This document shows, piece by piece, positions 28,111 through 63,894 of a DNA stretch of 64,000 nt. Below the pieces are notes generated by a model. The model made no database searches and was not told the DNA's origin. It saw nothing but the letters and a program-made list of their open reading frames with translations. Each line of letters starts with the position of its first letter. Position 1 is the stretch's first letter. Source of the DNA: Candidatus Kapaibacterium sp. (GTDB lineage: Bacteria; Bacteroidota; Ignavibacteria; Kapaibacteriales; UBA2268); NCBI GenBank assembly GCA_965140345.1, contig OZ223197.1, forward strand, positions 79,481-143,480, read 5' to 3'. The position numbers and the translations under genes were made by a program.

Positions 28111-29391
28111 ATGCAAAGACATTGCAATGTCAAGTATTATAAAACACTCTTAATTATTATGCTGTCGATTTTGGTCGTTAGTTGTAGCGATGACGATGAT
28201 GGTCCAATTACTCCAACTTCCAAAATTTTGGATATAGAAACCCAGCAGGCTCTGCATTACATGATGGATACAATGACCTCGAATAGGGGAATACCTGGAG
28301 CCATCGTCATGGTGCAAAAAGCCGGATATGAACCGTGGTATACTTCAGTAGGTTATAGAGATATAAGTACAAAAGACACATTGCTTCCTACACATCGTTT
28401 TCTAGTAGGTAGTATCTCAAAAACATTTGTAGGAGCAGTAATTCTTCAGCTTATTCAAGATGGAAAATTAGGACTAGATGATAAGTTAGTAGATCATCTT
28501 GATGCTGTAACTTTAAATCCGGACGTATACGACACAAGTATGTATAAGTTCTCTGAGATAACAATTAGAGAAATGCTTAACCACACTAGTGGAATGGGGA
28601 ATTATCTGAATGAGTATTTTGTTCCTTGGGCATTTGAAAACAGATCATCTTCAATAACTCGCGAAGCTCTGACTGATTCTTTGAATTCTGATGGACTTTA
28701 TTTCGCACCTGGAACAGGTGTGCAATACTCTAACTCTGCTTACATCACTCTTGGTTTGCTAGCAGAAAAAGTAACAGGCAAAAAGATAGAAGATTTAGTT
28801 AAAGACAGATATATAGATCCTATGGGACTATCCAATTCTTACTTCCCAAGTACTCTTTCTGAAACATCAGCATGGTTGGATGATAATACTCATGGTTATG
28901 CAATTTACTTGGATGGCAATCAACATGATGTAACAGATTTTGATCCTTCATATACTTGGGCTGCAGGCGCAGTAGTTTCTAACGCAGAAGATTTACTTGT
29001 TCACCTTAAAGAAATGTTGACTGGTAGCAAGATGCTTAATCCACAAATCCAGGCAGAAAGATTAAAATTTGAAGAAACAGAAATGCATGGATATGGCAAA
29101 GCTGGATTTGGCTTAGCGATAGCTGAAATCGGTGATTTATACAGAGGTCACTCGGGTGGCTGGATTGGATATAATACTAATATTTATTACAGAAAAGATA
29201 AAGATGCATATATCATAACATTTGTAAACAGATATTCCGGTGGTGAAAATCCTGCCTGGGATTTATTCTTGTATGCTAATGAAGTAGTGTTCCCTAATTC
29301 ACCTGTACAAAAAATAGCTCCTGCAAATGAGATTCAGGGACTAAAATATTCAATTGACCCTCAAAGTACCAATTTTTTCAAAATTAAGTAG
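28111..29391 (+). CDS. Beta-lactamase-fold serine hydrolase lipoprotein (class C beta-lactamase / D-Ala-D-Ala peptidase-like PBP family)
   Basis: Lipobox LVVSCSDDDD; SxxK GSISKTF, YxN YSNSAY, H/KxG HSGGWIGY; 426 aa. Confidence 0.8.
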   Translation: MQRHCNVKYYKTLLIIMLSILVVSCSDDDDGPITPTSKILDIETQQALHYMMDTMTSNRGIPGAIVMVQKAGYEPWYTSVGYRDISTKDTLLPTHRFLVGSISKTFVGAVILQLIQDGKLGLDDKLVDHLDAVTLNPDVYDTSMYKFSEITIREMLNHTSGMGNYLNEYFVPWAFENRSSSITREALTDSLNSDGLYFAPGTGVQYSNSAYITLGLLAEKVTGKKIEDLVKDRYIDPMGLSNSYFPSTLSETSAWLDDNTHGYAIYLDGNQHDVTDFDPSYTWAAGAVVSNAEDLLVHLKEMLTGSKMLNPQIQAERLKFEETEMHGYGKAGFGLAIAEIGDLYRGHSGGWIGYNTNIYYRKDKDAYIITFVNRYSGGENPAWDLFLYANEVVFPNSPVQKIAPANEIQGLKYSIDPQSTNFFKIK

Positions 29392-29402
29392 AGGTAATAG
29401 AA

Positions 29403-29891
29403 ATGGCACAAGTAGAAAACTTGGCACAAAACCAAACAGCCACAGCCAATAATATCGTAAATAAGTACATCTGGTGGGCTGCCGGAGGTGGTGCGATTCC
29501 ACTTCCAATATTTGATATTGCAGCAGTAAGTGCTGTGCAGTTGAAAATGCTAAAATCACTTGCAGAGCATTATGAAATCGAATTTAAGCAGGACTGGGGT
29601 AAATCCTTCATTGCTGCTTTATTGGGCGGTATCGCTGCAGATCAATTAACTCGCAGTACAATCACTAGCTGGGTTAAAGCTATTCCCATCGTTGGCATAG
29701 TTGCAACTCTTTCAATGCCTATTTACTCAGGAGCAATGACTTACGCTGTTGGTAAAGTATTTATTCAGCATTTCGAATCAGGTGGTACTTTCCTTGATTT
29801 TAATCCTGATAAAGTAAAAGCTTACTTCGCAGAAATGTTCAAAGAAGGCACTCAAAAAGGTGCTACTGCAACTGCTACAAAAAAAGCATAA
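29403..29891 (+). CDS. Hypothetical protein with DUF697/YcjF-like glycine-rich membrane-associated motif
   Basis: WAAGGGAIPLPIFDIAAVSAVQLKMLKSLAEHYEIEF resembles DUF697 core; 12 bp after the serine hydrolase gene; domain name recalled from memory, not searched. Confidence 0.45.
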   Translation: MAQVENLAQNQTATANNIVNKYIWWAAGGGAIPLPIFDIAAVSAVQLKMLKSLAEHYEIEFKQDWGKSFIAALLGGIAADQLTRSTITSWVKAIPIVGIVATLSMPIYSGAMTYAVGKVFIQHFESGGTFLDFNPDKVKAYFAEMFKEGTQKGATATATKKA

Positions 29892-29905
29892 CTTCTTTTT
29901 TCTAT

Positions 29906-29947: not shown

Positions 29948-29991
29948 GAAAAAATGAGAATACTGACTAGAAAGCACATATTGGAGATGAA

Positions 29992-32900
29992 ATGAAAAAC
30001 TTAATAGAATTATTGGCAAACATCAGAAACAGCTCTAAAGGAATAACATTTTATACTAGCACAGGAACATCTGAATTTTATTCTTACCAATATTTATATC
30101 TTTCATCTCAGTCTAGACTTCAACATTTTAATCAGAATAATATAGATTCTTCTTTTCAGGCGGTTTTTCAAATCTCTTCAGATAAAAACTTTATTGAATC
30201 ACTATGGGCTTGTATCCTTGGTGGAATTACAGTTGTTCCATTACCTCTAGCCGATAGTAAGGAATCAGAGCAAAAATTAAGGAATATATTAGACTTACTT
30301 GATAACCCTATTATTCTAAGTGATTCTGATGCTATAATTGAAGACTATGATGCAATAGATGTTTCCGAGACTTTTGTAGAATCTGAAATTGAATTAGAGT
30401 TTAAATCTCAAAATCCACTTCTGATTCAATTTTCATCCGGTTCGACAGGCTCACCTAAAGGAGTCATTGTATCGCATGAAAATTTAATTTCAAATCTGGA
30501 ATCAATGAGAACAACTTTGGAGTTCAGGAAAGATGAAGTTTTTCTTTCATGGGCACCACTGACCCATAGTTCAGGTATGATACTCGCACACTTGAATGCC
30601 GTCAGAGGCGATTATAATCAGATTCAAATAGAACGTCAGGCTTTCATTTCTAATCCTTTAAACTGGATCTATCTGACAGATAAACATAAAGCTACATTTA
30701 TTTTTGCACCAAATTTTGGTTACAAATATTTTTTATCTGCATTGGATAAAAAAGTTAATTACGAATGGGATCTAAGTTCTGTGCGATATATTATGAATGG
30801 CTCAGAACAAATCTCTGCTGAAATAGCAAATGAGTTTACCTACACTCTTTCAAAATATAGACTAAATTCTAAAGCTATGACTACCATATATGGCCTGGCT
30901 GAAGCAACACTCGCTGTCAGTTGCGAATCAATTTATGAAGAGCTTCAATATCTGAATGTAAATAGGAATTCTATAAATCTTGGTGGTTCTATAGAAGTAA
31001 GTAAAGATGACAAAAACTCACTCAAACTTGTATCACAAGGTAAAGCTGTAGCAAATACTCAGATTAGAATATTCGATGAAGAAGTTCTTTCTGACAATAT
31101 GGTAGGAGAGATTCAGGTTAGAAGTGATTCTGTTATATCATCCTATTATAAAAATCCAACTGCTACAGAATCTTTACTAACTCCTGATTCTTGGCTTAAA
31201 ACAGGTGACTTAGGATTTTTAAGAGATGGTAAGTTATATGTATGCGGAAGACAGAAAGAACTTATAATCATCAACGGAATAAATTACTACCCTGATGATA
31301 TAGAAAGGCAACTTGCTTCTTTAATTGATATCTCTCAAAATCATATTATAGTCTCTTCAAAAATAAATGAGACAAGTGGAACGGAAGAAATTGTATGCGG
31401 AGTTGCTTCTGAGAGAGATTTAGATGTAGAATCGATAAAAAAGAATTTCATTGCTAAATACGGTATTGTTATATCTCACATTAGAAAAATCGAATCGATA
31501 CCAACTACTTCAAACGGTAAGAAACAGAGAATCAAGTTCGCTAAAGACTTCATTATTGAGCATGATAAAACTGATAATAATATCAGTATCAATAATTTGG
31601 ATCTTTGGCAAATTAGAGATGTTATAATCAAAGTGGCAGAGAAATTTGTAGAAAGCAATTTTGATTCGAATAAAAACTTTGCTCTTCAGGGATTCAACTC
31701 CATTAAAACAGTTGAATTTGTTTCTGACTTGTCTAAAATACTGAATATAAATTTAGATGCATTCGTAGTTTTTAATAATCCTGATGTACAATCTTTAAGC
31801 AATTATATAAGCTCAAAGATGAGTTATTTGGAAGCTAAAAAAGATATATCTGAAGATCAGAATTATGAAGATATCGCTATCATTGGTATAGATTGCAGAT
31901 TTCCAAAAGCTAAAAATGCAGATGAGTTCTATAGAAATCTGATAAGCCACATTGATTGTATTTCAGAGATTCCAAAATCGCGTTGGGATGTATCAAAAAT
32001 AGCTGATTCTAAGATCAAGGAGATACCAAATTATGGAGGTTTCCTATCTGACTTTGATCTTTTTGACAATGAATTCTTTAATATCCTACCAATTGAAGCA
32101 AAATCCCTTGATCCTCAGCAACGCCTGCTTTTGGAAACAACAATACATGCTCTGGAAGATGCAAATATTAAAATTGAAGATATTCGTAATTCAGATTGTG
32201 GAGTCTATGTAGGAATCGCAAACAGTGATTATGCGGCAGTAGAAGCAAAATCTTCTGAACTTCAAAAAATAACACCTTACAGTTTCACGGGTTACACTCC
32301 AAGCACTGCCGCAGGTAGAATTTCTTATTTTCTAGGTTTACATGGTCCAAACTTAGCAATAGATACAGCTTGCTCTTCATCGCTCGCGGCATTGCATTAT
32401 GCATCTCGTGGTATTCAAAATAAAGAATGTAAACTGGCTATTGTATCCGGAGTAAATCTTATTCTAAGTCCGGAAATGAATATTGGGCTTTATGAAATGG
32501 GAGTGCTTTCTGAAGATGGCAGATGCAAAACATTTGATAAAAAAGCCAATGGATATGTCCGTTCTGAAGGCTGTGCAACTCTAATTATTAAAAGTTTAAA
32601 ACAAGCAGAGGAAGATGGAGACAGAGTTTATGGTGTGGTTAAAGCGTCTGCTCTATCTCATGATGGTGCTAGCAACGGTTTAACTGCTCCAAACGGTGTG
32701 GCACAAGTCAAAGTAATGCAAAAATCTTTGGGAATCGCAAAGCTACATGCTAAAGATATAAACTACTTTGAAGCACATGGCACAGGCACAGTTGTTGGAG
32801 ATTTGCAGGAACTTAATTCAATAAGTGAATTATGCGGAAAGATAGAACCTCATCAGAAAGTTGGTGCTGTTAAATCAAATATAGGTCATACTGAAGCGGC

Positions 32901-35900
32901 AGCAGGTCTTGCGGGTGTTATTAAAATTCTAAAAGCTTATGAAAAAGGTACACTGCCGGGGAATCTACATTTCAATCACTTACCTGAAAATTCTCATGTA
33001 GATATTTCTGATTCTAATATAGTATCTAAAAATATTGATATTTTTGAACTTCTCAGTGAAGCAAATTCTGATAAGCTCAGAGCTTCAATCAATTCATTCG
33101 GATATAGTGGAACGAATGTCAATCTGATTCTGGAGCAATACCCAAATGCTAATATAAAAACGAAAGTAACACATTCTTCTAATGCAATCCGAGTATTACC
33201 ATTAACAGCAAAAACTAGCGAATCTCTGGATAAAACCATGCAAGCATACTCCGAATTGCTAAATAAAGAAGCTATACATATCGATGATTTAATTGCAAAT
33301 CTAGAGCTTTTTAGAGACAAGTATAAGCATAGAGCAGCTATAGTTTCTACTAATTCGAATATTATTGATATCCTTTCAGATCCTACTTCTAGCAAGATTA
33401 AATACAAAGTACTGAAAAGTAGTAGTATAACAGAAAGTAAGGGTATTGTTTTTACCTATCCAGGTGGCGGAGCTCAGCGTCTTAAAATGGGGCAGGAGCT
33501 TATACAAAAAGACTCAGTTTTTGCAGATAATATGCTCAAGTGTGATAAATTGTTATCTAATTACCTCAATACATCTATAATTGATATAATCAACAATAAC
33601 AAAGAAAAACTCGGTAAACTTGAGTTTGCTCAGCCAGCGCTTTTTGCAATTGAATATTCTCTAAGTCAGATGTTTGTTTCTTATGGATTAACTCCGCAAG
33701 CTGTAATAGGGCATAGCACGGGTGAGTATGCTGCAGCGTGCATTGCGGGGATTATCTCACTGGAAGATGCTGTAAAAATGATCTCTGTCAGAGCTAAACT
33801 TATGGATAGCATTGACACAAAAGGCAAAATGGTTGCTGTATATACTAATTCTGAAACAGTTGGGAAATATCTGACTGATTATCAGAAATATGTAAGTATA
33901 GCTACTATTAATTCTTCTGAAAATGTTGTTATATCAGGTAGTAGCGAAAAAGTTGATGAGATCGTTCAAAAAATTAAAGCAGACGGTATTGAATTCAAAG
34001 AACTCAAGATCTCACAAGCTTCACATTCACCGATTATGGAAGAAATTATTGATCCATATAGAGAAGCGATTAAATATATTGAATTTAAAGAAGCAAAGAT
34101 TGATTACTACAACAATATAACAGGAAAGAAGCTTGAAAAAGGAACTATCTTAGATGCAGAATATTGGTGTAATCATATTCTGGAATGTGTAAATTTTGCT
34201 GCTTCATTACAAAATATCCGAGAAGACGGATTCCATATATTCCTTGAATTAGGACCATCTCCTGTATTGACAGGGGTAGGTTTGCAGGATTATCCGGATG
34301 ATCTTTTTATATCAGCATTTGCTAAAGACTTTGATGAATACGAACAAATACAGCGTGTTCTAGGAGAACTTTATGTAAATGGTATTGATTTAAGCTTTTC
34401 TAAAATATATAAGATAGAGCAATTTAATAAGATAGAATTGCCGAAATATCAATTCTCTCAAAAGCGTTTTTATCAGGATCCAAATCATGGTCTTTATAAA
34501 CAAAACAATCAAATATATCAAACTGTTACAAGTATTCCGGAGCAAGTAAAGATGAAAACATCAAGAAACTATAAGAACGAAATTCTTGAAATTATTGCTG
34601 ATAAAACCGGATTAGAGAAAGAACAGCTTGATATCAATACCGGATTTTTCCAAATGGGAATGGATTCGCTTACTTTAGTGAAAATGAGGCAAGAGATAAA
34701 CAAAAAGTATGCTATTTCTGTCTCAATGACTGATTTGGTTAAAAACTATGATACAGTATCCAAGCTTTCTGAATTTGTAAGCAGCAATATGCCTGAAGAA
34801 CCGGAAGTGATTGAAAATTCTACTTATGAGCCGGTACAGCCTTTACAAAACCATCAACAAACAAGCTCTAATCAAAATGTTAGTTATGTTGAATCCATAA
34901 TTCAGCAGCAAATGCAAATAATGCAACAGCAGCTGAATTTACTTCAAAATTCGGCGCAAGTAATTTCTGAACCAGTTCAACAAAAGAAAGTCAAGAAACA
35001 AAGCAAACCTACAAATTTCAGATCTCTAAAGCTGGATGGTGACAATTTAAGCGTTGAGCAGGAAAAGTTTATAAATGATTTGATTGAAAAATACAATCAT
35101 AAAACTAAAAGCTCGATGGAATATGCTCAAAAGCATAGAAAGCACCTCTGTGATTGGATAAATACTCTTTCTTTCCGCTTTAGTCTAAAAAAAATGAGCT
35201 ATCCTTTTGTTTCTTCCAGATCTGAAGGCGGTTATGTTTGGGATTTAGATGGTAATAAATACATTGATATAGCTAATGGTTATGGAGTTCACTTCTTCGG
35301 TCATAGACCAAAATTTGTAGAAGAAGCTATTTTGCAGCAAATAGACAAAGGCTTTGAACTTGGTCCACAATCTGCAATTGTAGGTGAGACAGCGGAACTT
35401 CTTGCTCGCCTCAGTAAAAACGAAAGGGTTACTTTCTGTAACACGGGCTCTGAAGCTATCATGGTCGCTATTAGAGTAGCACGTGCAAAGACAGGTAGAG
35501 ATGAAATAGTGATCTTTGGTGGTTCTTATCATGGTACATTTGACGGCGTACTAGCTGTCCCTGATGATGATGGTGATTCACGCCCTGTTTCCATTGGTGT
35601 TCCTGAAGGTATGGTAGAGAATGTAAAAGTCTTAGATTATGGTTCTGATGAAGCTTTAGAATATATTAAAATCAAAAGCCAAAATATTGCTGCAGTTATC
35701 TGCGAACCAGTTCAAAGTAGAAAACCGCATTTACAACCTAAGGAGTTTATAAAAGAACTCAGAGAAATCACTCAAAACTCTGGGACTACTCTGATCTTTG
35801 ATGAAGTTGTAAACGGGTTTAGAATTTCAGCCGGAGGGGCTCAGGAATTTTATGGTATAAAAGCTGATTTGGTTACTTATGGCAAAGTAATTGGCGGTGG

Positions 35901-38900
35901 TATGCCATTGGGAGTACTTGCCGGAAAAGCTGAATTCCTTGATTATATTGATGGAGGAAATTGGGATTTTGCTGATAACTCTGTACCTGAAAATGATATA
36001 ATATTTTTTGGAGGCACTTTTTGTAAACATCCTCTTACAATGGCTGCGTGCAATGCAGTATTGAAAAAAATAGAAAAAGAAGGGGACGAGCTATATAACA
36101 GACTAAATAGTATGACTGCTGATTTTGCAGATAAAGCGAATAAGTTATTCAAAGAACTACGAGTTCCCTTGACTTGTACTTACTTTGCATCTCAGTTTCG
36201 CATAGATGGTCAAAACGAATACAGCTTACTTTTAAAACCTATTGAGCTCGATATATTCTTCTACTTGATGATATACAAAGGTGTTTATTTCTGGGAAAGA
36301 AAGGTAAACTTCTTCTCCACTGAAACATCTAAAGAAGATGTAGAATACATCCTGAAAGCGATGCGCGAAGCTCTTACGGAAATGATTGATAATGGGTTCT
36401 TTCCTGATGAAACTAGAAAAATATCTCCAATTAAAATAATGGAAGCTTCTACATCTCAAAAGAGAATGTTCCTATTAAGTCAGTATGAAGGTGGAGAAAT
36501 AGCTTATCATATCACACTTCCATTTTTAGTAAAAGGCAAACTAGAAACCAATAAACTTGAAGCAGCTATAAGCAAAATTGTTGATCGCCATGAAATATTA
36601 CGTACTAAATTTTATCTGAAAGATAGTAAGATAATAAGCGAAGTAGTTGATAATTATGATTTTAAATTGACTCATTTTGAAATAGAAGATGATTTACAAA
36701 GTGGAATAAATAAGTTTATTCAAAGCTTTGATTTATCTTCATTACCACTATTTAGATTTGGTTTGGCTAAGATAAATGAAAACGAGCATCTACTTGTTTT
36801 GGATATCCATCATATTATCTTCGATGGTCTTTCTATTGCTGTTCTGATAGATGAATTGTGCAAGTTCTATGTTGGTGAAGAAGTTGACTATCAGCCAGTA
36901 CAATTTAAGAGATTTTTGAATTTAGAAGAAAAGTATTTTGGCAGCAAAGATTTTCAAATCGATAAAGAATATTGGCTTGAAAATCTAAAAGATTTGCCAG
37001 TAGCCGCTGATTTACTTCATGATTTTAGCAGACCACCAAAAACAACATTTGAAGGTGATCAGTTACATTTTCAAATAGATTCTGAATTAACAACTAAGAT
37101 ATTTAAATATTCTAGAGAAAAAGGAATTACTCTAAATACCGTACTTCTAAGTGCTTATGCCTTGATGTTAAATAAACTATCCGGTGCAGAGGATTTTGTT
37201 ATAGGTTGTCCTGCTTCTATTAGATCAATAGATGATGATCTTGATACTGCAATTGGTCTGATGGCTAATACAGTTCCTCACAGAATCAAATTGGATAAAA
37301 TTCAAAAGTTCTCAGAATTTGCTCAAAAGCAAGCTATACAAACAACTGAAAATTATGAGCATTCCATATATCCAATTGAAAAGATTATTGAAGACCTTGC
37401 TCTTGAAAATTATGGCAATAGGCATCCTTTGTTTGATTCTCTTTTCATTTTTGAAGCAGCTGATAGTAGGCTTTTTGATATAGAAGGACTTAGCTTTGAA
37501 AGATATAAATATCAGAAACAAACAACAATGTCCGATCTGGTATTTGAAGCTATAAAAGAGTCCGGTGTTATAAATTGTAGTATTGAATATGATAAGAATC
37601 TATTTGAAAAAGCTACGATTCAGAGATTTATAGTTTATTATAATAATATTCTTTCTCAGATAATATCTGATAACGATGTTTCAATTCAAGATGTTAACAT
37701 AATTCCTGAAAAAGAATATCAAATACTAAAATCCGGATTGATGGATTATAATCATGAGGCAAAACTAGAATCAGCTTTAGATATATTTACAAAAAATGTA
37801 GCTAATAATCCTTATAAAAAAGCTGTAATTACCTCTGATAAAACTATTCTTTATAAAGATTTAGATAAATTATCTAATTCCATTGCTTATCATATTCAAA
37901 ATAATATCAACAGAACAGATGCAAAAGTTGCATTGCTCTTGGATAGAAATGAATACTTAATAGCAGCTATTCTTGCATGCTATAAACTTGGAGTTCCTTA
38001 TATTCCATTAGATAAAAGTACTCCTCAAGAACGCAATGAGTACATTTTGCAAGACTCTATGGCTGATTTGCTTATCACCGAAGATGATATGAAAATATCC
38101 ATTCCACAACTTCATTTGAGTGGAATTGATTTTTCTGAAGATCACATTGTAGAGTATAATTCTGATTTAAATTCTCTAGCGTATATCACTTATACTTCAG
38201 GTTCTACAGGAAAGCCCAAAGGTGTAATTATCCGACAAGAGAATATAGTTGCGTTTGTAGATAACTTTGATAAAGTCTTTAATTTCCAGAGAGATGAAAA
38301 AATTCTTGCAGTTACAACTGTCTCTTTTGACATCTCGAATCTTGAAATTATCTGCTCTCTACTTTACGGAATGACAGTTGTTCTCGCTTCTGACGCTGAA
38401 ATCAATAATCTAAATCTGCTCAAGGAATTATGTCACATAAACCATATTGAGAATATTCAGTTAACTCCCAGCCGCTGCAATCTTTTATATCAGGAACTAG
38501 GCAAACCATTCTTAACAAGCTTTAAAACAATTCTTGTTGGTGGTGAAGCAATGCCTAAATCACTGTATAATGAACTTAAACACTTCAAAAATACCAGAGT
38601 CATAAACGTTTACGGGCCAACAGAAACTACTATTTGGTCGAGCTCTAAGCTGATTAATGATAGTGAATTGAATATCGGTAGAGCCTTAGTCGGAGAGAAA
38701 ATCTTTATATTGGATCAAGAGAATAATCCTGTACCAATCGGCGTCAAAGGTGATATATGTATAGCAGGAACAGGAGTAGGAAATGGTTATTATAATCGCA
38801 AAGATCTTACAAAAGATAGATTTATAAAAGCTGATTTTATTGATGATATAATCTATAAAACAGGTGATATAGGAAGGATCAATAATAACCTTGAAGTGGA

Positions 38901-42303: not shown

Positions 42304-44158
42304 AATGTGCGGAATTGCTGGAATATTTGACCCTAAAACAAAAAGCTCTTTTAATACTAAAACTTTAAAGAGAATGGCTGATAAGATAGTACATCGTGGA
42401 CCGGATGATGATGGCTATTTTGTGGATAGTATGTGCGGACTTGCATTCAGAAGACTTTCAATTGTAGATTTATCCACAGCTGGTAATCAGCCGTTTTATA
42501 ACGAAGAAAAGTCAATTGTATCAGTTACAAATGGCGAAATTTACAACTATCCTGAACTTAGGAAAGATCTTTTGGCTAAAGGACACAAATTAAATTCTAA
42601 CTGTGATACTGAGATAATAAATCATCTTTATGAAGAGTATGGAGATACTTTTGTAGAAAAGCTTGACGGTCAGTTTGCAGTAGCACTTTATGATAAAAAC
42701 CTGCAATCCTTGCTTCTTGCCAGAGATTTTGTGGGAGTAGCACCTTTGTTTTGGACTAAGCATAATGGTGTTATATATTTTGCTTCAGAGATAAAAGCGA
42801 TATTAGCTAATCAAGATATAACACGAGAGATTGACCTGACTTCTCTGGATTCTATGTTTACATTTCCATCAATTGTTTCGCCAAGAACGATGTTCAAAGG
42901 TATTCACTCATTAAAGCCGGGACATATTCTAAAAATCCATTCTGATGAAGCTAAAGAATTGAAATATTACGATTTAGACTATCCACAGGAAATAGATTTA
43001 GATTCAGAAAAATCTGTTGATGAGCATATAGAAAATATTGATTTTCTACTTGGAAAAGCTGTTAAAAAAAGATTGCAGGCAGATGTTCCTGTGGGCTGTT
43101 ATATAAGTGGTGGACTCGATTCTTCTATAATATCATCTCTCACTCGTAAAGAATTGTCAAATAGAGACCTAAATTCATATTCTATTCTTTTCGATGATAA
43201 CAAAATAGATGAAAGAAAATATCAAAGAATGATGTCTCAGCAGATTGCTTCCAATCACAATGAAATAGAATTCGATTGGCAGAGCATTAGCAATTATCTG
43301 CAAAAAGCTGTGTACCATGCGGAAACACCTCTTAAAGAAACATATAATACCTGTTCACTGGCACTTTCTGAAAAAGTGAATGATTCAGGATTAAAAGTGA
43401 TTCTAACAGGTGAAGGAGCTGATGAGATTTTTGCAGGCTATGTAGGCTATAGATTGGATTTGGAACGTGAGCCTGAAGAATTAGAACCTGAAATAATCGA
43501 AGATCAGGCTATTAGAGAAGATTTGTGGGGAGATTCGCAATTTATATACGAAAGAAGCTTTGTCGAGCTGAATGAGCTTAAAAATGCGATTTATGGAGAT
43601 AATATCGTTTCTTCGCTTAATGATTTTAATGCAGCATTCTCAAAACCTGTAAATAAAGAATATTTGCAGGGTAGACATATAAATCATAAACGCTCTTATT
43701 TAGATTTCAAACTAAGAATTTCTGATCACTTAGTTGCTGATCATGGCGACAGAGTAACTTTTGCTAATTCAATCGAAGGCAGATATCCATTTCTTGATAA
43801 AGATCTCTTAGATTACACAAGAAAGATACATCCTAAGTATTTAATAGAAAATGGAATAGAGAAATCAATTCTAAAAAAATATGCTGCTAAGATTGTTCCT
43901 GATGAAATTAGGAATAGAGAAAAGTTTGCATTTGTTGCGCCGGGTAGCCAATATCTGCTTCAGCATAATTATGAGTTTGTATCAGATTATCTTTCCTATG
44001 ACAGTATAAAAAGTGCAGGATATTTTAATCCTGCCACCATAGAAAGACTCAAAAAAATGTATTTAAGGCCGGATTTTTCGATAAATCAAACATTTGAAAA
44101 CGACATTCTGATGATAGTTTTGACTTTTAATATCTTATTAGAACAGTACAAAATATAA
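42287..44158 (+). CDS. Asparagine synthetase (glutamine-hydrolysing) family amidotransferase (AsnB-like)
   Basis: N-terminal Ntn Cys MCGIAGIF (class-II GATase), PP-loop SGGLDSS, 623 aa; start overlaps megasynthase stop; embedded between NRPS genes. Confidence 0.85.
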   Translation: MTRNFKMCGIAGIFDPKTKSSFNTKTLKRMADKIVHRGPDDDGYFVDSMCGLAFRRLSIVDLSTAGNQPFYNEEKSIVSVTNGEIYNYPELRKDLLAKGHKLNSNCDTEIINHLYEEYGDTFVEKLDGQFAVALYDKNLQSLLLARDFVGVAPLFWTKHNGVIYFASEIKAILANQDITREIDLTSLDSMFTFPSIVSPRTMFKGIHSLKPGHILKIHSDEAKELKYYDLDYPQEIDLDSEKSVDEHIENIDFLLGKAVKKRLQADVPVGCYISGGLDSSIISSLTRKELSNRDLNSYSILFDDNKIDERKYQRMMSQQIASNHNEIEFDWQSISNYLQKAVYHAETPLKETYNTCSLALSEKVNDSGLKVILTGEGADEIFAGYVGYRLDLEREPEELEPEIIEDQAIREDLWGDSQFIYERSFVELNELKNAIYGDNIVSSLNDFNAAFSKPVNKEYLQGRHINHKRSYLDFKLRISDHLVADHGDRVTFANSIEGRYPFLDKDLLDYTRKIHPKYLIENGIEKSILKKYAAKIVPDEIRNREKFAFVAPGSQYLLQHNYEFVSDYLSYDSIKSAGYFNPATIERLKKMYLRPDFSINQTFENDILMIVLTFNILLEQYKI

Positions 44159-51000: not shown

Positions 51001-54000
51001 TCATTGAAAGTGATAATAAGCTTGATCTTGAATTGACTTATAATACAGATTTATATGAAGACAAGTTTATTGCCTCTATTTCAGGCCATCTAGAACAAAT
51101 AATAGAAGAGATCACAATCTCAATCAATCAGCCTGTAGATTCTATCAATATTCTGACTCAAAATGAATTGGATCAATTACTAAAATTCAATAAGACAGAG
51201 TATAAATACTCGGATAATTCCTCAATTACGGACTATGTAGATCAGATAGCAGAAAAATATCCTGAAAATACAGCTCTTACTCTAAAAGACAAAAGTATAA
51301 GCTATAAAGAATTGAAAAAACGATCTGATGTGATAGCTGCTAATATATTGAAAAATAATGACATTAGGATTGGTGATAATGTCGCAGTCTTTACTAAAAG
51401 AGATATTGATTTTGTACCGATAATGCTTGGCGTTATGAAAACAGGGGCTATATATGTTCCGATAGATGAAGAAACTCCTCTAATTAGATTGAAAAAAATC
51501 CTCAATAATTGCTCTGCAAAGATGTTGATAACTGATAAAATAATTGATGTCGATGTTCAGGTCGTAGATAAAAACAATCTTATAAACACTGATATATCTA
51601 TGATTCAACTAGCTAAACTTGAGTCCAAAACTCCTGCATATATAATTTACTCATCAGGAACAACAGGTGAGCCAAAAGGAATTGTTGCTACTCATTCCAA
51701 CTTGATCAACACAATAGAAGATCAGATTCATGCTTTTGAGATAGATACAAATTCTAAAGTGATGCAATTTTACTCAACTGCTTTTGATGCTTCTATGTTG
51801 GAAGTATATTTGGCTCTTTTTGCCGGTGCTGAACTTGTGGTAACCCCAAAAGAAATTATATCAGACAAAACAATGATAGAAAGCTATTTGCAAGAAAAAC
51901 AAGTTAGTTTTGCATTTTTCCCTCCTTCATATCTAAAGATATTGGATAAAGAAAAACTTGCTAATGTTAAGACCATAGTTACCGGAATGGAACCGCCGAT
52001 ATTAGAAGACGCTTCCTATTTTGCGGAAAAAGGAAATTATTTCAATATTTATGGCCCTACAGAAACAACTGTAATTTGCTCTTATCACAAAGTTGATCCT
52101 AGAGAGAATAATAATTCGGCTATTCCTATCGGTAAACCGATGCGAAATTATTCTATGTATATCATGAATGATGAACTTCAAATTCAGCCGATTGGATTTC
52201 CGGGAGAAATCTGCATAGAAGGTGAGGGGCTGGCTTTGGGATATCTTAACGATAAAGATTTAACTGACTCTAAGTTTAAAATCAATCCATTGACAGGCCA
52301 CAGGATCTTCTGTTCAGGTGATATTGGTAAAATGCTACCAAACGGCGATATAGTTTATCTGTCTCGTAAAGACAAACAGGTCAAAATAAGAGGATATAGA
52401 ATTGAGACCGGAGAAATTAAAGCTAATATTGACAAAATAGATGGAATAAGAGAATCTTATATTAATGTTATTGATGAAAATGGCAATAAAGAGTTAGCTG
52501 CTTATGCTATTTCTAATAGCTTGAAAGAGTCTGAAATCAGACAGAGACTAAAATCTATGCTTCCTCAGTACATGATTCCGAAATATATTAAGCTAATAGA
52601 TGTTATGCCTCTTACTCTAAACGGCAAGATTGATAAGAATGCGTTGCCAACTGATTTCTCAGATGAAATAGATAACAAACATGAGAATCAGGAACTTAAC
52701 GAAAAAGAGAGTATGGTACTTGAAATTTGGAAAAATGTTTTGGCAAAAGAAGTTATAGGAATAAACCGCAATTTTTTTGAACTGGGTGGTGATTCTATAA
52801 AAGCTATACAGATTTGCTCTCTATTAGCACAAAAAGGCTATTTAGCGAATGTTAGAGACGTTTTTTCACATAATACCATCAAAGATTTAGCTAGTGTTCT
52901 AAAAGCTAAGGAAACTCGAATTGAGCAGGATCTCGAACCCGGCATATATCCTCTCAGCCCTATTCAAAAATGGTTTATAGATCAAAACCATGGGATAGTG
53001 GATCATTTCAATCAGGCACAATGCTATGAATTTACTTCAAAAATCGATTCCGCTAAATTTAAAGAAGCTATTGATTTTGTAATGAAAAGGCATTCTGCCT
53101 TTAGAACAAAGTATATTAAAACTGAGAATGGGTACGCTCAAGAATTAATGGAATCGCCAACAGAATATAAATATTTTGAAGTGCTTGAACAGAAGTTTGA
53201 CAAAGACAACATACTGTCAATCTCAGAAGAGATGAATAAATCTATGAATCCTCAAAAAGGAGAGATGATTAAATTCAAGATTATCAGAGAAGAAAATGTT
53301 GATTATCTAATCATTGTAGCACATCACTTTATTATAGATGGTGTTTCATGGAGAATCCTAACACAAGAGCTAGAGACTGCTTATAAGGCTTTAGAATCCG
53401 GTTCCAAAATTTCCCTTCCGGAAGAATCAGATAGTTTTCAAATATGGACGCAAAATATTGAATCTGTGTTCAGTAGTAAAAAGCCTAATATTGAATACTG
53501 GAATAAATTTGAAACAAACGAATATATAGTTGAATTTCAACAAAAAGAAACGAAATTTTATACAGCTTCATTTGAATTGGATCAAGAATATACTCGCAAA
53601 TTATTAGAAGATTGCAACAAGGCATTTAGTACAGAGATAAACGATGTTTTACTAACAGCAGTTAATATCGGATTTGCTGATATGTTCCCTAAACATAATC
53701 ATATTGATATAATGCTTGAAAGTCATGGTCGAGAACATGATTTTAAAAATATAAATATATCCGACACAATTGGTTGGTTTACAACATTTTATCCTGTCTC
53801 TTTTTCGGTAAAATCTAATCTCAAAGAAAGCATTGTCGAAGTTAAAGATAAGCTGAGATCTGTTCCGAATAAAGGATTTGATTTTATTGCTCTAAAGTAT
53901 ATATCAAATGAGCTTAAGCATATTAAAGAACCTAAAATTACATTCAATTACTTAGGTATATTTAATGAAGTAGGAGAGTCTAGTCTGTTGAAAATAAAAG

Positions 54001-54281: not shown

Positions 54282-54659
54282 ATGAGTGAAATGAACAAAG
54301 TTCAAAACCAAGTTAAACCAAAAATATGGTTGCTTAATATAGCAGAAAAAGAAATCGGTATAGCTCGTCTTTTTGATGAAAAATTCAAAAAAGAGTTTAA
54401 AGACAGATATGAAATGATTACTTCTGCTAACAATATCCAAAAGCAACAAAATGATTTAGTTGTGGAGCTACATAGCACTTATAATGGACTGTTTTTCGCT
54501 ACTGCTATTAAGTTCTATAAATTTCAAGAAGTTAATAAAGAAATTATATGGCGTTCTATTGGAGAGTCAAGCATATCTGTCTATAAAGACACAAAATATT
54601 TTGACATAGCAAGAGATTACTATCAGATTACAAAAAGAAGCTTAGAACAATACCTCTAG
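54282..54659 (+). CDS. Hypothetical small protein between NRPS genes (not MbtH-like)
   Basis: 125-aa ORF; 9 bp after NRPS stop, 10 bp before next NRPS start; basic, no MbtH W/P signature. Confidence 0.5.
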   Translation: MSEMNKVQNQVKPKIWLLNIAEKEIGIARLFDEKFKKEFKDRYEMITSANNIQKQQNDLVVELHSTYNGLFFATAIKFYKFQEVNKEIIWRSIGESSISVYKDTKYFDIARDYYQITKRSLEQYL

Positions 54660-54669
54660 GGAATACGAT

Positions 54670-60600: not shown

Positions 60601-61368
60601 AAATTCAGAAAACAAATATCAATAGCTGACTTATATAATCTTCAGTCAGCAAGAAATATCTCAGATTATCTTTCAACTGAAGAGAAAAAAAAATCTGCAG
60701 TGATTCATTTTGATAACGGAAATGAGAATTTAATTTTTGCATTTCCTTCTATATTTGGGAATGCTTCTGAATATGAGTCACTTTCCAATTATCTGCAGTC
60801 TAATCAAATTATAGCTTTTGATTTCAATTCCAGAGATAGTATTGATATTAATCAGCTCACCGATGAGATTAAACAACTTGCCGCAAACAGAAGATTTTCT
60901 CTAATGGGATATTCTGTAGGAGGTGCTATGGCTTATCTGGTTGCAGAAAAACTAAAAGAAGCTGAACTTGAACCAGAAATGATATTTATGTTAGATTCTC
61001 ATTTGTTTGATCCGAAGAATTATCTTGTAGATGACAATAATATAGATATATTGGTAAAAAATAGTAATACAGGAATAAATCTTGATAAAAATATGAAAAA
61101 CAAGATATATACGTATTTAGATATTCTTGCCGGCAGCGAATATAATCACAAAATATCAAGCAGAATTGTACAGCTTAATTCAAATGATATTTATGAAAAC
61201 GATAAACGTTTTGCTTGGCAGGCACTTACAGATAAAAAACTAGAGGTATATCAGGGATTAGGAATGCACAGCCAAATGCTTAGTGAACCTTACGCTTTTG
61301 AAAATGCTGTGATTTTGAATGGGATATTATCAAACAATAAATACAAAAAAGATGAAAAGCGAAAATAA
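54670..61368 (+). CDS. Non-ribosomal peptide synthetase, two modules with terminal thioesterase: C-A-PCP-C-A-PCP-TE
   Basis: C (HHIIMDGWCNSILF ~55090, N-terminal MSPLQEAMYF, follows an E domain so probably D-C-L type); A YLIYTSGTTGKPKGV (~56425); PCP GGHSLKAMRL; C HHSISDGWS (~58105); A YIIYTSGTTGRPKGV (~59435); PCP GGNSLLVILF; TE GYSVGGAMAY (GxSxG ~60910). Confidence 0.95.
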   Translation: MLKKENIKNIIPMSPLQEAMYFRKTMDEKSSAYFNQIAFTLKGCFDFELFRKSWELIFERHDAFRTAFVHENAPRPLQIILKERKPEINLQGDFEENKFVEYKQFDLERGFNFKTHPLMRFSLWTIDQDTVKVLWSFHHIIMDGWCNSILFSEFEQIYSSLIDNKQWNLDPASSYSGYIKWIESIDKSKSESYWREYLSDFEEASLIAKKNDEALYSLSKSKLKLDIDTSNKLKEIAQIQGLTLTNLIKAIWSVIPAKLNDTNRSCFAYTISGRDYPIENIEKMVGLFINTLPQFIDLDKHQSIPDLAMSIQNDDIKNKEYGFVAGADIASYTGKDILYDHILIFENYPIESGEDSFFEYSDFEDFEQTDFPLALYVSMGAEIKITYKYNKNEISDCKIDNIRMYFKTLVSQFLANAYMPLADYKLLSKEEETEIIKINSGENFSIDSSKDLAALFKSQVINNPDRVILVTKNKSYTYKQVDLLSNSVANMLMTESSEIVGVYLERSELIIISILGILKAGKAFLPLSTEHPFDRNQYIIRDSDVKTIISDQTTNFGIKRIINPDNFSEETLHQEKSRDISDTAYLIYTSGTTGKPKGVLLKQENLISFTQNLTQTFGIDDQDSLLAITTHTFDISILEMISTLLVGIKVYFCDKEEALNPKKISEIIEKYRINTLQITPSHLAGIIDVVGIEFLNNLKTILVGGEEFPISLMNSLESIVNTNIYNVYGPTETCIWSTAKLLKGEMSIGQPLLGEKVYILDRHNHIMPQGYIGEICIGGIGVGVGYHNKKELSQERFIQVDNIPDSVIYKTGDYGYYDENKEIKFVGRKDFQLKVRGFRIEEQEIVKAILSIDYIKDCVILKGESDNLIAYLVANKEYTNDYIKKCLNDILPKYMIPDTYMFIDNFPLNANGKIDRNALPKPNSKRIVSDEFTTHQYQIASVWSKILGHNNFDSKTSFMTAGGHSLKAMRLVALFNKKFEKQLEITAFMKEPTIEFMETFLQSVEDNKIEIEKLEKAELYKPSSNQKRLWVLQKHSGSSVDYNMPSAFLIKGNIDLARLENAFNKLIQKYDILRTRFIEENGEPYLKVSTSLDYKIPKINIYDIQACKEKIENLALKELKLDELPLFDVRFFSCNDDNQILYFNIHHSISDGWSQDILFKEWIEIYNGKEPLDNHLQYQDLIADIAKNAESLENKEYWLHRLSGFEKAGSNLVNYEYSVPGSSIFRMDLTHLSDQEIRDYCNRIGVSIYSYFLGLTSLLLKRYSDANEVCIATVSAGRDNHDLQIAPGYFANTMVFRSKTHIDESSEIYLKNIQNRLYRDLEHQHYPYDKVLNILAKESNLNINEIVDTIFVFQENEEIDAGFEGTSLEQLDISVPLKRFGLAIHLARKESKYSCEIIYENKRFSESMIARMCLHLQQLSREIIDKPSKPCLKLDILSSFEEKLYQNINENYLGFDIPQNCFQIVNAISKRNADSCAVISDLMQLSYKDLIAKTNEIAEKWKAKHKIKRGDVIAFYDHKSPEMISAILTIWRLGCVYLPIDVGLPQDRVTYILEDSNVRFITNSHLNLEKNRAYDEAHKISVDAAYIIYTSGTTGRPKGVAVKHAALANTIFNQIEQFEIQNNDTVLQFASLSFDASISEICQALFSGARIAIPQLEKIKDPEDLAEFIRKYKVSVATIPPSMLGFLKGKNVLTLKSIISAGEQAVKSDMVYFSNIANVFNAYGPTETAICSTIYKVNDTDIHLPQVPIGKPLANTQVLLLDSNMNQVPVSSIGDLYLFAPNTENCYFSSERLNKEAFIQVGNQTYYKSGDRAYSMETGDLVFAGRSDDQVKVRGYRIEPQEISKAIKEIRGVSNAFVLIKGKHIQKQIVAFIVGKQDERFIRDSLRRHLPDYMIPSEYVFLERLPLNKNGKIDKITLQLMNNKDSNFEKIQNEDEKAVIAIMAEVTGNYQIEVEDSFFESGGNSLLVILFRQKLETKFRKQISIADLYNLQSARNISDYLSTEEKKKSAVIHFDNGNENLIFAFPSIFGNASEYESLSNYLQSNQIIAFDFNSRDSIDINQLTDEIKQLAANRRFSLMGYSVGGAMAYLVAEKLKEAELEPEMIFMLDSHLFDPKNYLVDDNNIDILVKNSNTGINLDKNMKNKIYTYLDILAGSEYNHKISSRIVQLNSNDIYENDKRFAWQALTDKKLEVYQGLGMHSQMLSEPYAFENAVILNGILSNNKYKKDEKRK

Positions 61369-63010
61369 ATATACATTACTTGATTTTATTAAAAGAGAAT
61401 CCAAAAAGTCGCATAAGAATATATTAGGTGTAGCCGCTGTTTCGGGTATTGCTAATGCTCTGGTACTAGGTATTATTAATAGTGCCAGCAAGGTAGCGCA
61501 ACACGAAGAAGTAAGCTTTCAATACTTAGTTCTTTTTATGCTTAGTTTGACTCTTTTTATTATAACTGAAAGATATATTCTCAAAAATGGTGCTATCATC
61601 ATGGAGGGAATTGTAGATAGTATTAGAAAAAGATTAGCAGACAAAATCAGAAAAGCTGATTTACTTAGTTTAGAGAATATCGGACCTGCTCAGATATATA
61701 ACAGACTTACAAATGAAACAACGGCAATATCGCAGTCTGCCGGTCTTATTGTAGCAACTATGCAATCTGTTGTTATGCTGATCTTTGTTGTCTTTTATAT
61801 GGCGTATCTTTCTATTACTGCATTTGTTCTTATAGTTATTCTATTGATTGCAGGAATAGGAGTCTATCTAAGAAACGAGAAGATTCTAAAAAAAGAACTT
61901 AGACAAACAAATCAGACTGAAATTAAGTTTTTTGATACATTAACTTCGATATTAGAAGGTATCAAAGAAATCAAATTCAACAAAAACAGAAGTGATGAAA
62001 TATATTCATCTGCTGATTATATCTCTACTCGATTAAAGAATTTAAAAATCAGCTCTAGCATCAAATATGCTCAAAATTATATTTTTTCCCAGTCATTTTT
62101 CTTTGTGTCTATAGCAGTCATTGTTTTTATCCTTCCTAGGTTAGAACTCTCTGATACAGATGTAATAACACAATCAACTGCTGCAATTTTATTTATGATA
62201 GGGCCTGTTTCAAACATAGCAGCCGTAATTCCTGTAATGAATCAAGTAAGTCAATCTATAAATCATATTTATGAATTAGAAGATCAAATTAACAAAATAC
62301 AAGATACTCACCTCACAGATAGCGATGATACCAAATTCCACAACTTTAATAATATCTCAATAAAAAATCTGGAATTTACTTTTCCAAATGGGAATGGGAG
62401 CTCAAAATTCTCTATTGGCCCTATTGATTTAGATATTAAAAAGGGAGAGAAAATATTTGTTGTAGGTGGCAATGGTAGTGGTAAAACTACATTTATCAAA
62501 AATATGACAAAACTCTATCAACCTGACTCAGGTGAAATACTGATAGATGGTGAAGCTTTGAAGGAAGAAGATATTTGCAGTTATAGAGAGCTTTTCTCAG
62601 GAATCTTTGCAGAGTTCCATTTGTTCAGAAAGCTTTATGGTTTGAGTAAAATCGATAAAGAAAGAGTAAATGAGCTTCTTACATTAATGGAAATAGAGCA
62701 TAAAACAAAGTATATGGATGGTGCATTTACTAATCTGGATCTTTCTACAGGGCAAAGAAAAAGACTTGCATTAGTAGTCACGATGCTTGAAGATAAACCT
62801 ATTTGTATTTTTGATGAATGGGCTGCTGATCAAGATCCAATCTTCCGCCAGTTTTTCTATGAAACTTTATTAGATAAATTAATCAGTCAGGGTAAAACTG
62901 TGATTGCAGTCAGCCACGATGATAGATATTTTGGATTTGCCGATAAAGTAATAAAAATGGAATATGGCAAAATAATAGAAGTGCTTGACAATACTAAACT
63001 TAAGAGTTAG
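61319..63010 (+). CDS. Fused permease-ATPase ABC exporter of the cyclic-peptide/siderophore export type (SyrD/PvdE-like)
   Basis: 6 N-terminal TM helices then ABC domain (Walker A GGNGSGKTT, signature LSTGQRKRLALVV, Walker B IFDEWAADQD); annotated start overlaps NRPS 3' end by 50 nt; an internal Met at ~61352 (MKSENKY) is an alternative start. Confidence 0.85.
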   Translation: MGYYQTINTKKMKSENKYTLLDFIKRESKKSHKNILGVAAVSGIANALVLGIINSASKVAQHEEVSFQYLVLFMLSLTLFIITERYILKNGAIIMEGIVDSIRKRLADKIRKADLLSLENIGPAQIYNRLTNETTAISQSAGLIVATMQSVVMLIFVVFYMAYLSITAFVLIVILLIAGIGVYLRNEKILKKELRQTNQTEIKFFDTLTSILEGIKEIKFNKNRSDEIYSSADYISTRLKNLKISSSIKYAQNYIFSQSFFFVSIAVIVFILPRLELSDTDVITQSTAAILFMIGPVSNIAAVIPVMNQVSQSINHIYELEDQINKIQDTHLTDSDDTKFHNFNNISIKNLEFTFPNGNGSSKFSIGPIDLDIKKGEKIFVVGGNGSGKTTFIKNMTKLYQPDSGEILIDGEALKEEDICSYRELFSGIFAEFHLFRKLYGLSKIDKERVNELLTLMEIEHKTKYMDGAFTNLDLSTGQRKRLALVVTMLEDKPICIFDEWAADQDPIFRQFFYETLLDKLISQGKTVIAVSHDDRYFGFADKVIKMEYGKIIEVLDNTKLKS

Positions 63011-63012
63011 AT

Positions 63013-63894
63013 ATGAAGGATAAGAAATCATTCTCATACAAAATGACATACCAGTATCGAAAGTTTAAATATAACATGATGCGACTTTGGTTCCTTCATA
63101 AGTTTAAACTATCGATTATAACTGTAGTTTTGGGACTACTGATTACCTATTTCTGGCAGGGAATATTTGTATCTATCGGTTCCGGTGAGCAAGGTGTTCT
63201 CTGGTATCGAATTACAGGTACTAATATGGATCAGATTTATGACGAAGGTTTACATCTCGTTTTTCCTTGGGATAAAATGTATGTCTATAATGTCAGGATT
63301 CAATCAGTTAATGATACTATGTCAATTCTAACTTCTCAGGGATTAACTGTTAAGTTTCATATTACTTACAGATTCTATCCGGATAAAAATGAATTGCCAA
63401 AGATACATAAAATACTTGGCCCTGAATATAATGCTACTTATGTGAAGCCAGAGATAAAAGCGGCTGCCATGTCAATACTCGGTAATTATACTCCTGAGAA
63501 GCTTTATACCATGTCTACTCAGGTGATTCAGGCAACTATTAAACAGTATGTACTAAAAGAACTTTACGATCAGGATATTATTCTGGAAGACTTTTTAATA
63601 AATAAGATAGAATTACCGATAAAAATTGCATCAGCAATTGAAGATAAATTAGCAAAAGAACAGCTACTTTTAGAATTTGATTATAGAATAGGAATAGCAG
63701 AGAAAGAAAAGCTAAGAAAAGGAATTGAAGCAGATGGAATCAAAAAGTTCGAAGATATTTCCGGAGTATCTATACTTAAATGGCGTGGTATAGAAGCAAC
63801 AGAAAAGCTTACGACTTCTCCTAATTCTAAAGTTATCATAGTGGGTACAAGCGATAAAGATTTACCTGTCATCCTTAATTCGGAGTCTAAATAG
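63013..63894 (+). CDS. SPFH/band-7 (prohibitin/stomatin-like) membrane protein
   Basis: N-terminal TM IITVVLGLLITYFW followed by SPFH core EQGVLWYRITGT...TSQGLTVKFHITYRF...IKAAAMSILGNYTPEKLY; C-terminal coiled coil; starts 3 bp after ABC exporter stop. Confidence 0.75.
   Translation: MKDKKSFSYKMTYQYRKFKYNMMRLWFLHKFKLSIITVVLGLLITYFWQGIFVSIGSGEQGVLWYRITGTNMDQIYDEGLHLVFPWDKMYVYNVRIQSVNDTMSILTSQGLTVKFHITYRFYPDKNELPKIHKILGPEYNATYVKPEIKAAAMSILGNYTPEKLYTMSTQVIQATIKQYVLKELYDQDIILEDFLINKIELPIKIASAIEDKLAKEQLLLEFDYRIGIAEKEKLRKGIEADGIKKFEDISGVSILKWRGIEATEKLTTSPNSKVIIVGTSDKDLPVILNSESK

Follow-up and report, generated by a model that had tools for sequence, protein, structure and literature searches.

The iturin family of lipopeptides carries the signature L-Asn, D-Tyr, D-Asn at positions 1–3, which is made with three epimerization (E) domains. 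The iturin synthetase uses the trans enzyme ItuD, and the transamination of a beta-keto to a beta-amino group is established for this system (PMC11751314). The cyanobacterial puwainaphycins follow the same logic of a fatty acyl-AMP ligase (FAAL), a polyketide synthase (PKS) with an aminotransferase (AmT) and a nonribosomal peptide synthetase (NRPS), and transamination has been proposed to be a general rule (PMC4219810). Here we describe a locus of this kind on contig OZ223197.1 of Candidatus Kapaibacterium sp., a member of the Bacteroidota in the FCB group. The analysed stretch of 64,000 nucleotides (positions 79,481 to 143,480 of the contig) is referred to as the window. At positions 28111–63894, it holds what is probably a single hybrid PKS-NRPS operon for a lipopeptide composed of a beta-amino acyl starter and seven carrier-bound residues, and this operon appears to belong to an orphan cluster family and not to the iturins, to which the original prediction had assigned it.

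The first half of the megasynthase P1 has all the domains required for a beta-amino acyl starter. The best solved matches of its loading domain were the loading domain of McyG (248 bits), followed by the FAALs 3PBK, 3KXW and FadD32. Since the domain belongs to the acyl-AMP ligase group, the starter is predicted to be an acyl carboxylate. The catalytic triad of the ketosynthase (KS) is complete (Cys791/His927/His966, in the motifs DTACSS at 791, EAHGTG at 927 and KSNIGH at 961), and its top single-domain solved match is the cis-AT KS of CurL. The AmT domain is closest to the aminotransferase domain of MycA (6KFM, 429 bits, E 1.8e-127, over the full length); glutamate-1-semialdehyde aminomutases trail with E about 1e-56, and the pyridoxal phosphate (PLP) lysine is conserved (TYGK). 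The refuting signs that the original prediction had named for the AmT (a missing PLP lysine or a grouping with non-amine-forming transaminases) and for the KS (a clade of trans-acyltransferase polyketides) were not seen. A Pfam search of P1 revealed no ketoreductase, dehydratase, enoyl reductase or methyltransferase domain. Because the KS triad is intact and reductive domains are absent, the MycA/ItuA-like starter logic proposed originally is supported, and the integrated acyltransferase (AT) reported at the same time was indeed found within P1. With its FAAL-type loading, a PKS module that lacks reduction, a class-III aminotransferase within the megasynthase and the NRPS that follows, the cluster can be classed with the general beta-amino lipopeptide PKS-NRPS hybrids. 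The extender choice of the AT was judged from its motifs. Malonyl-specific ATs have HAFH and methylmalonyl-specific ones YASH at the relevant position; in P1, the upstream motif appears malonyl-like and QASH is atypical.

P1 is followed by a gene for an AsnB-type amidotransferase. Its start is most likely ATG 42305, one base past the P1 stop, since the product then begins with MCGIAG and has the nucleophile Cys at its N-terminus; this replaces the start at TTG 42287 that had been assumed before. The 617-amino-acid ATG-start version has a 99% match on an ENA contig, and no exact database match was found for the 623-amino-acid TTG-start version. Both the glutaminase Cys and the PP-loop (SGGLDSS) are intact, and the best solved match is E. 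coli AsnB (1CT9).

To place the cluster, we used loci from other genomes for comparison (designated by L numbers). Homologues of asnB with 52–55% identity lie directly 3' of an AmT megasynthase in L085 (Proteobacteria), L086 (Desulfatitalea-like), L087 and L089, all four being loci from metagenome-assembled genomes (MAGs). In another MAG locus, L090, asnB stands beside the AmT megasynthase, and genes for an S12 protein of the beta-lactamase fold, an ABC protein, a DUF697 protein and a Band_7 protein are also there. In Chitinophaga varians (L083), an asnB homologue in this range of identity is located inside an NRPS without an AmT domain. The first adenylation (A) domain after asnB has the specificity code DVRHLALLAK in every sampled locus with downstream sequence (all except L086 and L090). 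Of the 74 A domains scanned in all the loci, 16 carry the code DVRH[L/F]ALLAK, exclusively in loci with a close asnB homologue, and three such modules stand in a row in C. varians. The first residue differs between the asnB-linked clusters. All codes were read by alignment to a GrsA A-domain sequence, which returned DAWTIAAICK for GrsA itself at positions 235–517; the substrate names that we attach to them are assumed from published codes and do not come from a predictor. A literature search for the code strings gave no match.

The five types of accessory gene in the window (DUF481, DUF697, S12, Band_7 and ABC) recur as subsets in L085, L086 and L090: DUF481 lies right after asnB in L085 and L086, and DUF697 is also present in L085. 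The asnB and 'OMP' genes embedded in the cluster had been listed as details that differ from Bacillus clusters. Both genes are there, but the 'OMP' is a DUF481 protein, and asnB and DUF481 mark a conserved cross-phylum family, not Kapaibacterium oddities. In the window, asnB directly follows the AmT megasynthase, DVRHLALLAK is the first code after asnB, and the accessory genes are in place; by this gene order the cluster is assigned to a cross-phylum orphan family of asnB-linked AmT-NRPS clusters, of which it would be the Kapaibacterium-lineage member. In our literature search, whose coverage was incomplete, no paper on asnB in lipopeptide or NRPS clusters and no product of an asnB-linked cluster was found.

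Several features of the related loci were recorded in addition. The C. varians locus (JABAIA010000004.1, 464–21878) comprises genes for a NusG-like protein and a MacB-type transporter, then FAAL-T-C-A-T-C, asnB and a gene for a luciferase-like monooxygenase, as well as three consecutive A-T-C proteins, each with the code DVRH[L/F]ALLAK. PALP and ornithine-cyclodeaminase-like genes lie 5' of the AmT megasynthase in L087 (1–1895), a pair that we take to resemble SbnA/SbnB, the makers of 2,3-diaminopropionate; the A1 code of L087 is DIWEITADDK. The only other code of the xRH type among the 74 A domains is DARHFSLMVK, encoded by an open reading frame (ORF) from 9299 in L008 (Leptolyngbyaceae MAG), a cyanobacterial AmT cluster in which no asnB was detected.

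The cluster is conserved in close relatives. When the AmT domain was scanned against one genome per species, an 'uncultured bacterium' MAG (88% identity), a Candidatus Kapaibacterium MAG (82%) and a Chlorobiota MAG (81%) were found, and all other matches had ≤46% identity. These closest genomes agree with the FCB-group host deduced earlier from the DNA. The full operon with the same gene order is present in two relatives, whereas only a partial contig represents the third (L003). Although protein identity between relatives is 62–71%, no A-domain code changes in more than one residue (P3 and the codes of P2 are conserved in L091 and L092), and the A1 code is identical in L001, L002 and L003. 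Such preservation of the codes at this protein identity indicates selection on the product structure, and that the cluster is native to the lineage. For Kapaibacterium, we found no paper on a natural product or a characterized cluster, within incomplete literature coverage.

The three synthetases contain seven peptidyl carrier (T) domains, six A domains, one E domain and one thioesterase (TE). The count of seven modules with six A domains, one E and one TE given by the original prediction was therefore right, except that the first NRPS module is C-A-T (C, condensation domain) and not A-T; the six A-domain core positions proposed with it deviate from the A3 core motifs by no more than about 10 nt. 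The E domain closing P2 has the motifs HHFIIDG, ESHGRE, GWFTTFYP and FNYLG and is a true E domain; T5, directly before it, carries GGDSI. C6, right after E, is of the D-donor (DCL) type, and the remaining domains C1, C3, C4, C5 and C7 belong to the common L-donor (LCL) type. An acidic C-terminal tail, DIDNIDE(E/D)F, is conserved after C3. The second module has no A domain and consists of Cx and T2. Cx and C6 are reciprocal best matches in the window (137 bits) with a common N-terminal motif (LPMQEGM/SPLQEAM), and the best solved matches of Cx are McyB, BacC, TycB and SrfA-C, of which the TycB and SrfA-C domains presumably take D-configured donors. The possibility that Cx is an E domain was rejected, as it is devoid of the E motifs EGHGRE and FNYLG, has LPMQEGM and groups with C6, TycB and SrfA-C.

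From this domain order, the following route can be proposed. A carboxylic acid loaded by the FAAL-like domain and ACP0 would be lengthened by one unreduced C2 unit in a single Claisen extension on KS, the integrated AT and ACP1, and the MycA-type AmT would turn the beta-keto thioester into a beta-amino thioester, which C1 would join to the Gly activated by A1. The peptide would then grow over the seven carriers with one epimerization, at residue 5, to give the order beta-amino-acyl, Gly, X2 (on the carrier T2), X3 (DVRHLALLAK), X4, a D-residue with a hydrophobic-looking code, Gly and a Tyr-like residue. Release by the TE would plausibly proceed by macrolactamization onto the beta-amine, as in iturins, and the ABC exporter and the DUF481 protein, assumed to reside in the outer membrane, would move the product out.

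A special step in this scheme is the charging of T2, which would be loaded by a neighbouring A domain. Loading in trans by A3, which would dock onto C3 directly beside T2 and thereby give two identical X residues, is slightly favoured because the five best matches of C3, which takes its donor from T2, are all C domains placed after DVRHLALLAK modules and because tandem modules occur in Chitinophaga. Both points count against the alternative that A1 loads T2 in cis, so that the peptide starts with Gly-Gly, and that AsnB only supplies free Asn to an Asn-activating A3. This alternative is a possible, if less likely, one. The arrangement A1-T1-Cx-T2 mirrors the order A-PCP-Cy-PCP of HMWP2 of yersiniabactin synthesis. 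There, an A domain nearby charges the carriers that have none of their own; the likeness concerns this loading principle only, and chemistry and families differ. Moreover, AsnB passes the cutoff of the asparagine synthase equivalog, and its divergence from a non-NRPS homologue (52% identity) does not exceed that from NRPS-linked ones (53–55%). An Asn-activating A3, in turn, is disfavoured by the pocket, where Arg239 and His278 in the absence of an acidic residue would suit a carboxylate better than a carboxamide. A match of A3 to the Gly module of LgrA (503 bits) was discarded as a sign of Gly, since it was the sum of two ordinary 250-bit domain matches. As to the ranking of the carriers by similarity, T2 is nearest to T4, then T3, then T1.

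Residue X, the one with the code DVRHLALLAK, would be of the Asx type and tied to AsnB, which would either supply free Asn or amidate the carboxylate of an Asp activated by the A domain. An Asp/Glu racemase gene (PF01177) lies directly after asnB and DUF481 in L086 (12990–13778) and hints at a D-configured acidic amino acid as the asnB-linked residue. Considering Arg239/His278 over a hydrophobic pocket, this racemase gene and the intact AsnB, the DVRHLALLAK residue most likely ends as Asn or isoAsn. We also put forward, as a tentative and rather doubtful proposal, that the invariant asnB/DVRHLALLAK pairing found in several phyla is an undescribed route to an NRPS building block: the A domain would activate Asp, and AsnB would amidate its carboxylate on the assembly line or in the released peptide to an Asn or isoAsn that canonical Asn-activating domains do not make. 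In Kapaibacterium, this A domain would also charge the carrier-only module in trans, so that two such residues are installed.

The operon opens with a predicted S12 lipoprotein (lipobox-like signal ...LSILVVSC; motifs SISK, YSN and HSG in the translation), which is 84–85% identical and in the same position in L001 and L002; a PF00144 gene also adjoins asnB in L090. In the N-acyl-D-Asn prodrug systems (ClbP/XcnG), a C-A(Asn)-T-E starter is combined with an S12 peptidase that has C-terminal membrane helices. The conserved position of the hydrolase, the gene in L090 and the E domain in module 1 of relatives, which would yield an acyl-D-Xaa, could mean that the acylated N-terminus is a prodrug cap that the S12 peptidase cuts off outside the cytoplasm as ClbP does in colibactin-type pathways, the active product being a shorter linear peptide. 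We regard this as quite improbable. In the window, A1 is a Gly domain and module 1 has no E; the S12 protein matches DD-carboxypeptidase, alkaline D-peptidase and the R61 DD-peptidase more closely (E 1e-38 to 1e-29) than ClbP, for which E is about 1e-14, and has no C-terminal hydrophobic stretch like the ClbP helices; and a terminal TE with a free beta-amine suits cyclization. The locus thus differs from ClbP/XcnG in the first residue, in module 1 and in the peptidase. We rather suppose that this lipoprotein is a D-stereospecific peptidase that would serve immunity or maturation beyond the cytoplasm, a plausible role because D-stereospecific peptidases of this kind hydrolyse nonribosomal peptides (PMC9541196).

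The A-less module could finally be the remnant of a module that has lost its A domain in a decaying cluster, with a line that is inactive or skips the module. Relatives in other phyla (L085–L087) have a megasynthase ending in C-A-T-E-C(DCL type) before asnB, where the window has C-A(Gly)-T-C(DCL type)-T-C, that is, no E domain and an extra T-C pair, and the GGDSI motif of T1 suggests a past rearrangement. However, the HHxxxDG motif of Cx and the Ser of the GGHS motif of T2 are conserved in all three related genomes that cover the region (L001–L003) at 51–73% identity, the 9,400 codons are free of frameshifts and stops, and different species have kept the A codes. Decay is thus very improbable, and we regard Cx-T2 as a real A-less module. 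This form of the C-T module was found only in Kapaibacterium-like genomes. T1 (39229–39441) shares GGDSI with T5 (52698–52910), yet a C domain and not an E domain follows T1; since L085–L087 have an E domain at that place, the motif seems to be left over from one that has disappeared. Loss of this E domain, which fits Gly as the first residue, and gain of the T-C pair appear to have taken place in the Kapaibacterium line. By Pfam order (C, PP-binding, C, A...), the NRPS after asnB in L089 (17472–17857 and beyond) also starts with an A-less C-T-C, and carrier-only modules may recur in the asnB-linked family.

A number of points weigh against parts of the proposed scheme. McyG, the top solved match of the loading domain, presumably loads phenylpropanoid acids, and for this reason the starter may not be a fatty acid. 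The atypical QASH motif of the AT makes it uncertain which extender unit is used and thus whether there is an alpha-methyl branch. The support of C3 for loading of T2 by A3 is weak (139–174 bits with the C domains after DVRH modules, compared to 129 bits with the next C domain). A homologue of asnB with 52% identity was found in L088 (Omnitrophota MAG) with no NRPS nearby, and in view of this context AsnB may be no more than a common asparagine synthetase that was recruited to supply a precursor. The codes of A3, A4 and A5 have no assigned substrate. The acidic/Asx reading of DVRHLALLAK leans on a likeness to the presumed microcystin codes for iso-linked D-MeAsp and D-Glu (DARHVGIFVK, DPRHSGVVGK). 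The window contains no phosphopantetheinyl transferase gene. Finally, we found no paper from which the product is known.

The coordinates of the operon are summarized in Table 1. Spacing between its ten plus-strand genes is 1–15 nt, apart from a 100-nt gap 5' of P1 and a short overlap at the ABC gene, whose start may instead be ATG 61352. The window is AT-rich (about 32% GC), and the composition of the cluster equals that of its flanks. All the ORFs listed by the original prediction are present at their coordinates; a 125-amino-acid gene between P2 and P3 was added to them. The product of this gene has no Pfam match, and homologues of it (67–79% identity) were found only in three genomes, all of them related; in the two whose gene order was inspected, the position is the same. 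Of the other accessory genes, DUF697 encodes a protein 84–93% identical in L001/L002, the DUF481 protein has a signal-peptide-like N-terminus, and the SPFH gene also follows the ABC gene in L091 and L092. No RNA element was detected in an Rfam scan of the window.

Table 1 Features of the PKS-NRPS operon and specificity codes of its A domains
Feature	Position	Strand	Evidence and remarks
S12 (beta-lactamase-fold) serine hydrolase, predicted lipoprotein	28111–29391	+	PF00144, E 9e-47
DUF697 protein	29403–29891	+	PF05128, E 2.9e-13
P1 megasynthase, 4103 aa	29992–42303	+	FAAL-ACP-KS-AT-ACP-AmT-C-A(Gly)-T-C(DCL type)-T-C (Pfam, in-window phmmer, motif mapping)
P1: FAAL-like acyl-AMP ligase loading domain	29992–31566	+	A3 motif SSGSTGSPK
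P1: ACP0	31594–31836	+	Ser570 in GFNS; one of four PP-binding stretches in P1
P1: KS	31867–32973	+	PF00109 and PF02801
P1: integrated AT, aa 1153–1432	33448–34287	+	PF00698, E 1.2e-61; GHSTGE; FAQPALFAIEYSL; QASH
P1: ACP1 (GMDSL)	34564–34791	+	PF00550, best stretch aa 1530–1596
P1: PLP-dependent class-III AmT	35092–36411	+	PF00202
P1: module 1, C1(LCL-like)-A1-T1(GGDSI)	36439–39441	+	motifs, in-window phmmer
P1: module 2, no A domain, Cx(DCL type, HHLILDG)-T2(GGHSL)	39541–40941	+	motifs, in-window phmmer
P1: C3 (LCL-like), condensation half of split module 3	40984–42222	+	motifs
AsnB-type glutamine-dependent amidotransferase	42305–44158	+	TIGR01536, 468 bits, cutoff 267
DUF481 protein	44169–45020	+	PF04338, E 3.6e-12
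P2, 3078 aa	45036–54272	+	A3-T3-C4-A4-T4-C5-A5-T5-E
125-aa gene, no assigned function	54282–54659	+	gaps of 9 and 10 nt to P2 and P3
P3, 2232 aa	54670–61368	+	C6(DCL type)-A6-T6-C7-A7-T7-TE (TE motif GYSVGG)
ABC exporter, cyclic-peptide-export subfamily	61319–63010	+	TIGR01194, 358 bits, cutoff 286; PF00664, PF00005
SPFH/Band 7 protein	63013–63894	+	PF01145, E 3.2e-23
A1 code			DILQLGVIWK; Gly, one residue off the classical code
A3 code			DVRHLALLAK; unusual
A4 code			DGVIAALCTK; no substrate reading
A5 code			DALFVGIVIK; hydrophobic-looking; E domain follows
A6 code			DILQLGVIWK; Gly
A7 code			DASTIAAICK; Tyr-like

The surroundings of the operon are as described in the original prediction, with flagellar genes (flgF/G/A/H/I/J/K/L and motA at 5826–14927, 5' of the cluster) and a protein with the C-terminal domain of type IX secretion system (T9SS) cargo (23070–25418, minus strand; PF18962, 35 bits, cutoff 27). 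The latter has HYDIN/ASH-type Ig-like domains and a DUF1573 stretch before its Por_Secre_tail. Between it and the cluster are two minus-strand genes (26051–27744), one with a VWA domain. A plus-strand ORF of 180 amino acids (14937–15479) right after motA, at the place expected for motB, gave no match to Pfam at E 0.1. A minus-strand gene (3819–5186), flanked by the flagellar operon and a gene for a superfamily-1 helicase, encodes a 455-amino-acid protein consisting almost entirely of leucine-rich repeats (nine LRR_8 stretches).

To summarize, these data place the biosynthesis of beta-amino lipopeptides in Kapaibacterium-like Bacteroidota, and the apparent stray iturin cluster turns out to be a branch of an uncharacterized but conserved family extending over several phyla. 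New here are the cross-phylum asnB/DVRHLALLAK family, the A-less module and the 125-amino-acid gene; the FAAL-PKS-AmT-NRPS class was already known. Current understanding is not overturned, and the value of the cluster is that of a well-defined lead and not of a surprise. The asnB/DVRHLALLAK pairing offers a simple marker for genome mining and poses the enzymological question of what the DVRHLALLAK domain loads and what AsnB amidates, and provided that the C. varians strain is in culture, its locus would lend itself best to identifying the residue. The A-less module, in turn, would be a compact natural case of carriers charged in trans.

The idea that the cluster is a true iturin-family orthologue (ituABC/mycABC) acquired by an FCB bacterium and producing an Asn-rich cyclic lipoheptapeptide is hardly credible, since its nearest loci by gene content are MAG loci (Proteobacteria, Desulfatitalea and others) and not Bacillus, its GC content is uniform with the flanking genes and its A1 and A6 codes are those of Gly, even though an embedded asnB could point to the use of Asn. 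The logic had been called characteristic of Bacillus, which is too narrow, as we found KS-AT-ACP-AmT loci in Bacteroidia, Flavobacteriales, Myxococcales, cyanobacteria, Planctomycetes, Acidobacteria and Bdellovibrionota MAGs. The resemblance to iturin and mycosubtilin synthetases (MycA/ItuA) lies in the order acyl ligase-ACP-KS-ACP-AmT-C-A-T-C in one protein, with the next protein opening with an A domain, in an AmT that is homologous to that of MycA and keeps the PLP lysine, and in the terminal TE. Seven NRPS carriers and a TE are also found, but with only six A domains, as one module has none. In contrast to those systems, the AT is inserted after the KS and the operon has no separate AT gene, whereas a separate transacylase (FenF/ItuD) operates there (PMC11751314 for ItuD); there is one E domain, after module 5, instead of three; and the first residue is Gly instead of Asn. 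The residue pattern is Gly, DVRHLALLAK, two unassigned codes, Gly and Tyr-like, and not Asn/Tyr/Asn/Gln/Pro/Ser, with no canonical code for Asn, Gln, Pro or Ser. The accessory asnB, S12, DUF481, DUF697 and SPFH genes and the Kapaibacterium-like host, instead of Bacillus, are further differences. As the AT arrangement, the number of E domains and the residue pattern all disagree, the cluster, judged by its genes, should not be filed as an iturin cluster.

The puwainaphycin cluster (puwA-K) is similar in that it combines activation by a FAAL, a PKS module with its own AT and an embedded aminotransferase, followed by an NRPS (PMC4219810). In contrast to P1, however, its FAAL and ACP are separate proteins, and it includes a monooxygenase domain as well as an additional PKS module that reduces and methylates (PMC4219810). 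Its product is a ten-residue ring, compared to the seven carrier-bound residues predicted here, and the description of the cluster does not mention an asparagine synthase (PMC4219810), the gene for which links the Kapaibacterium operon to its relatives in other phyla.

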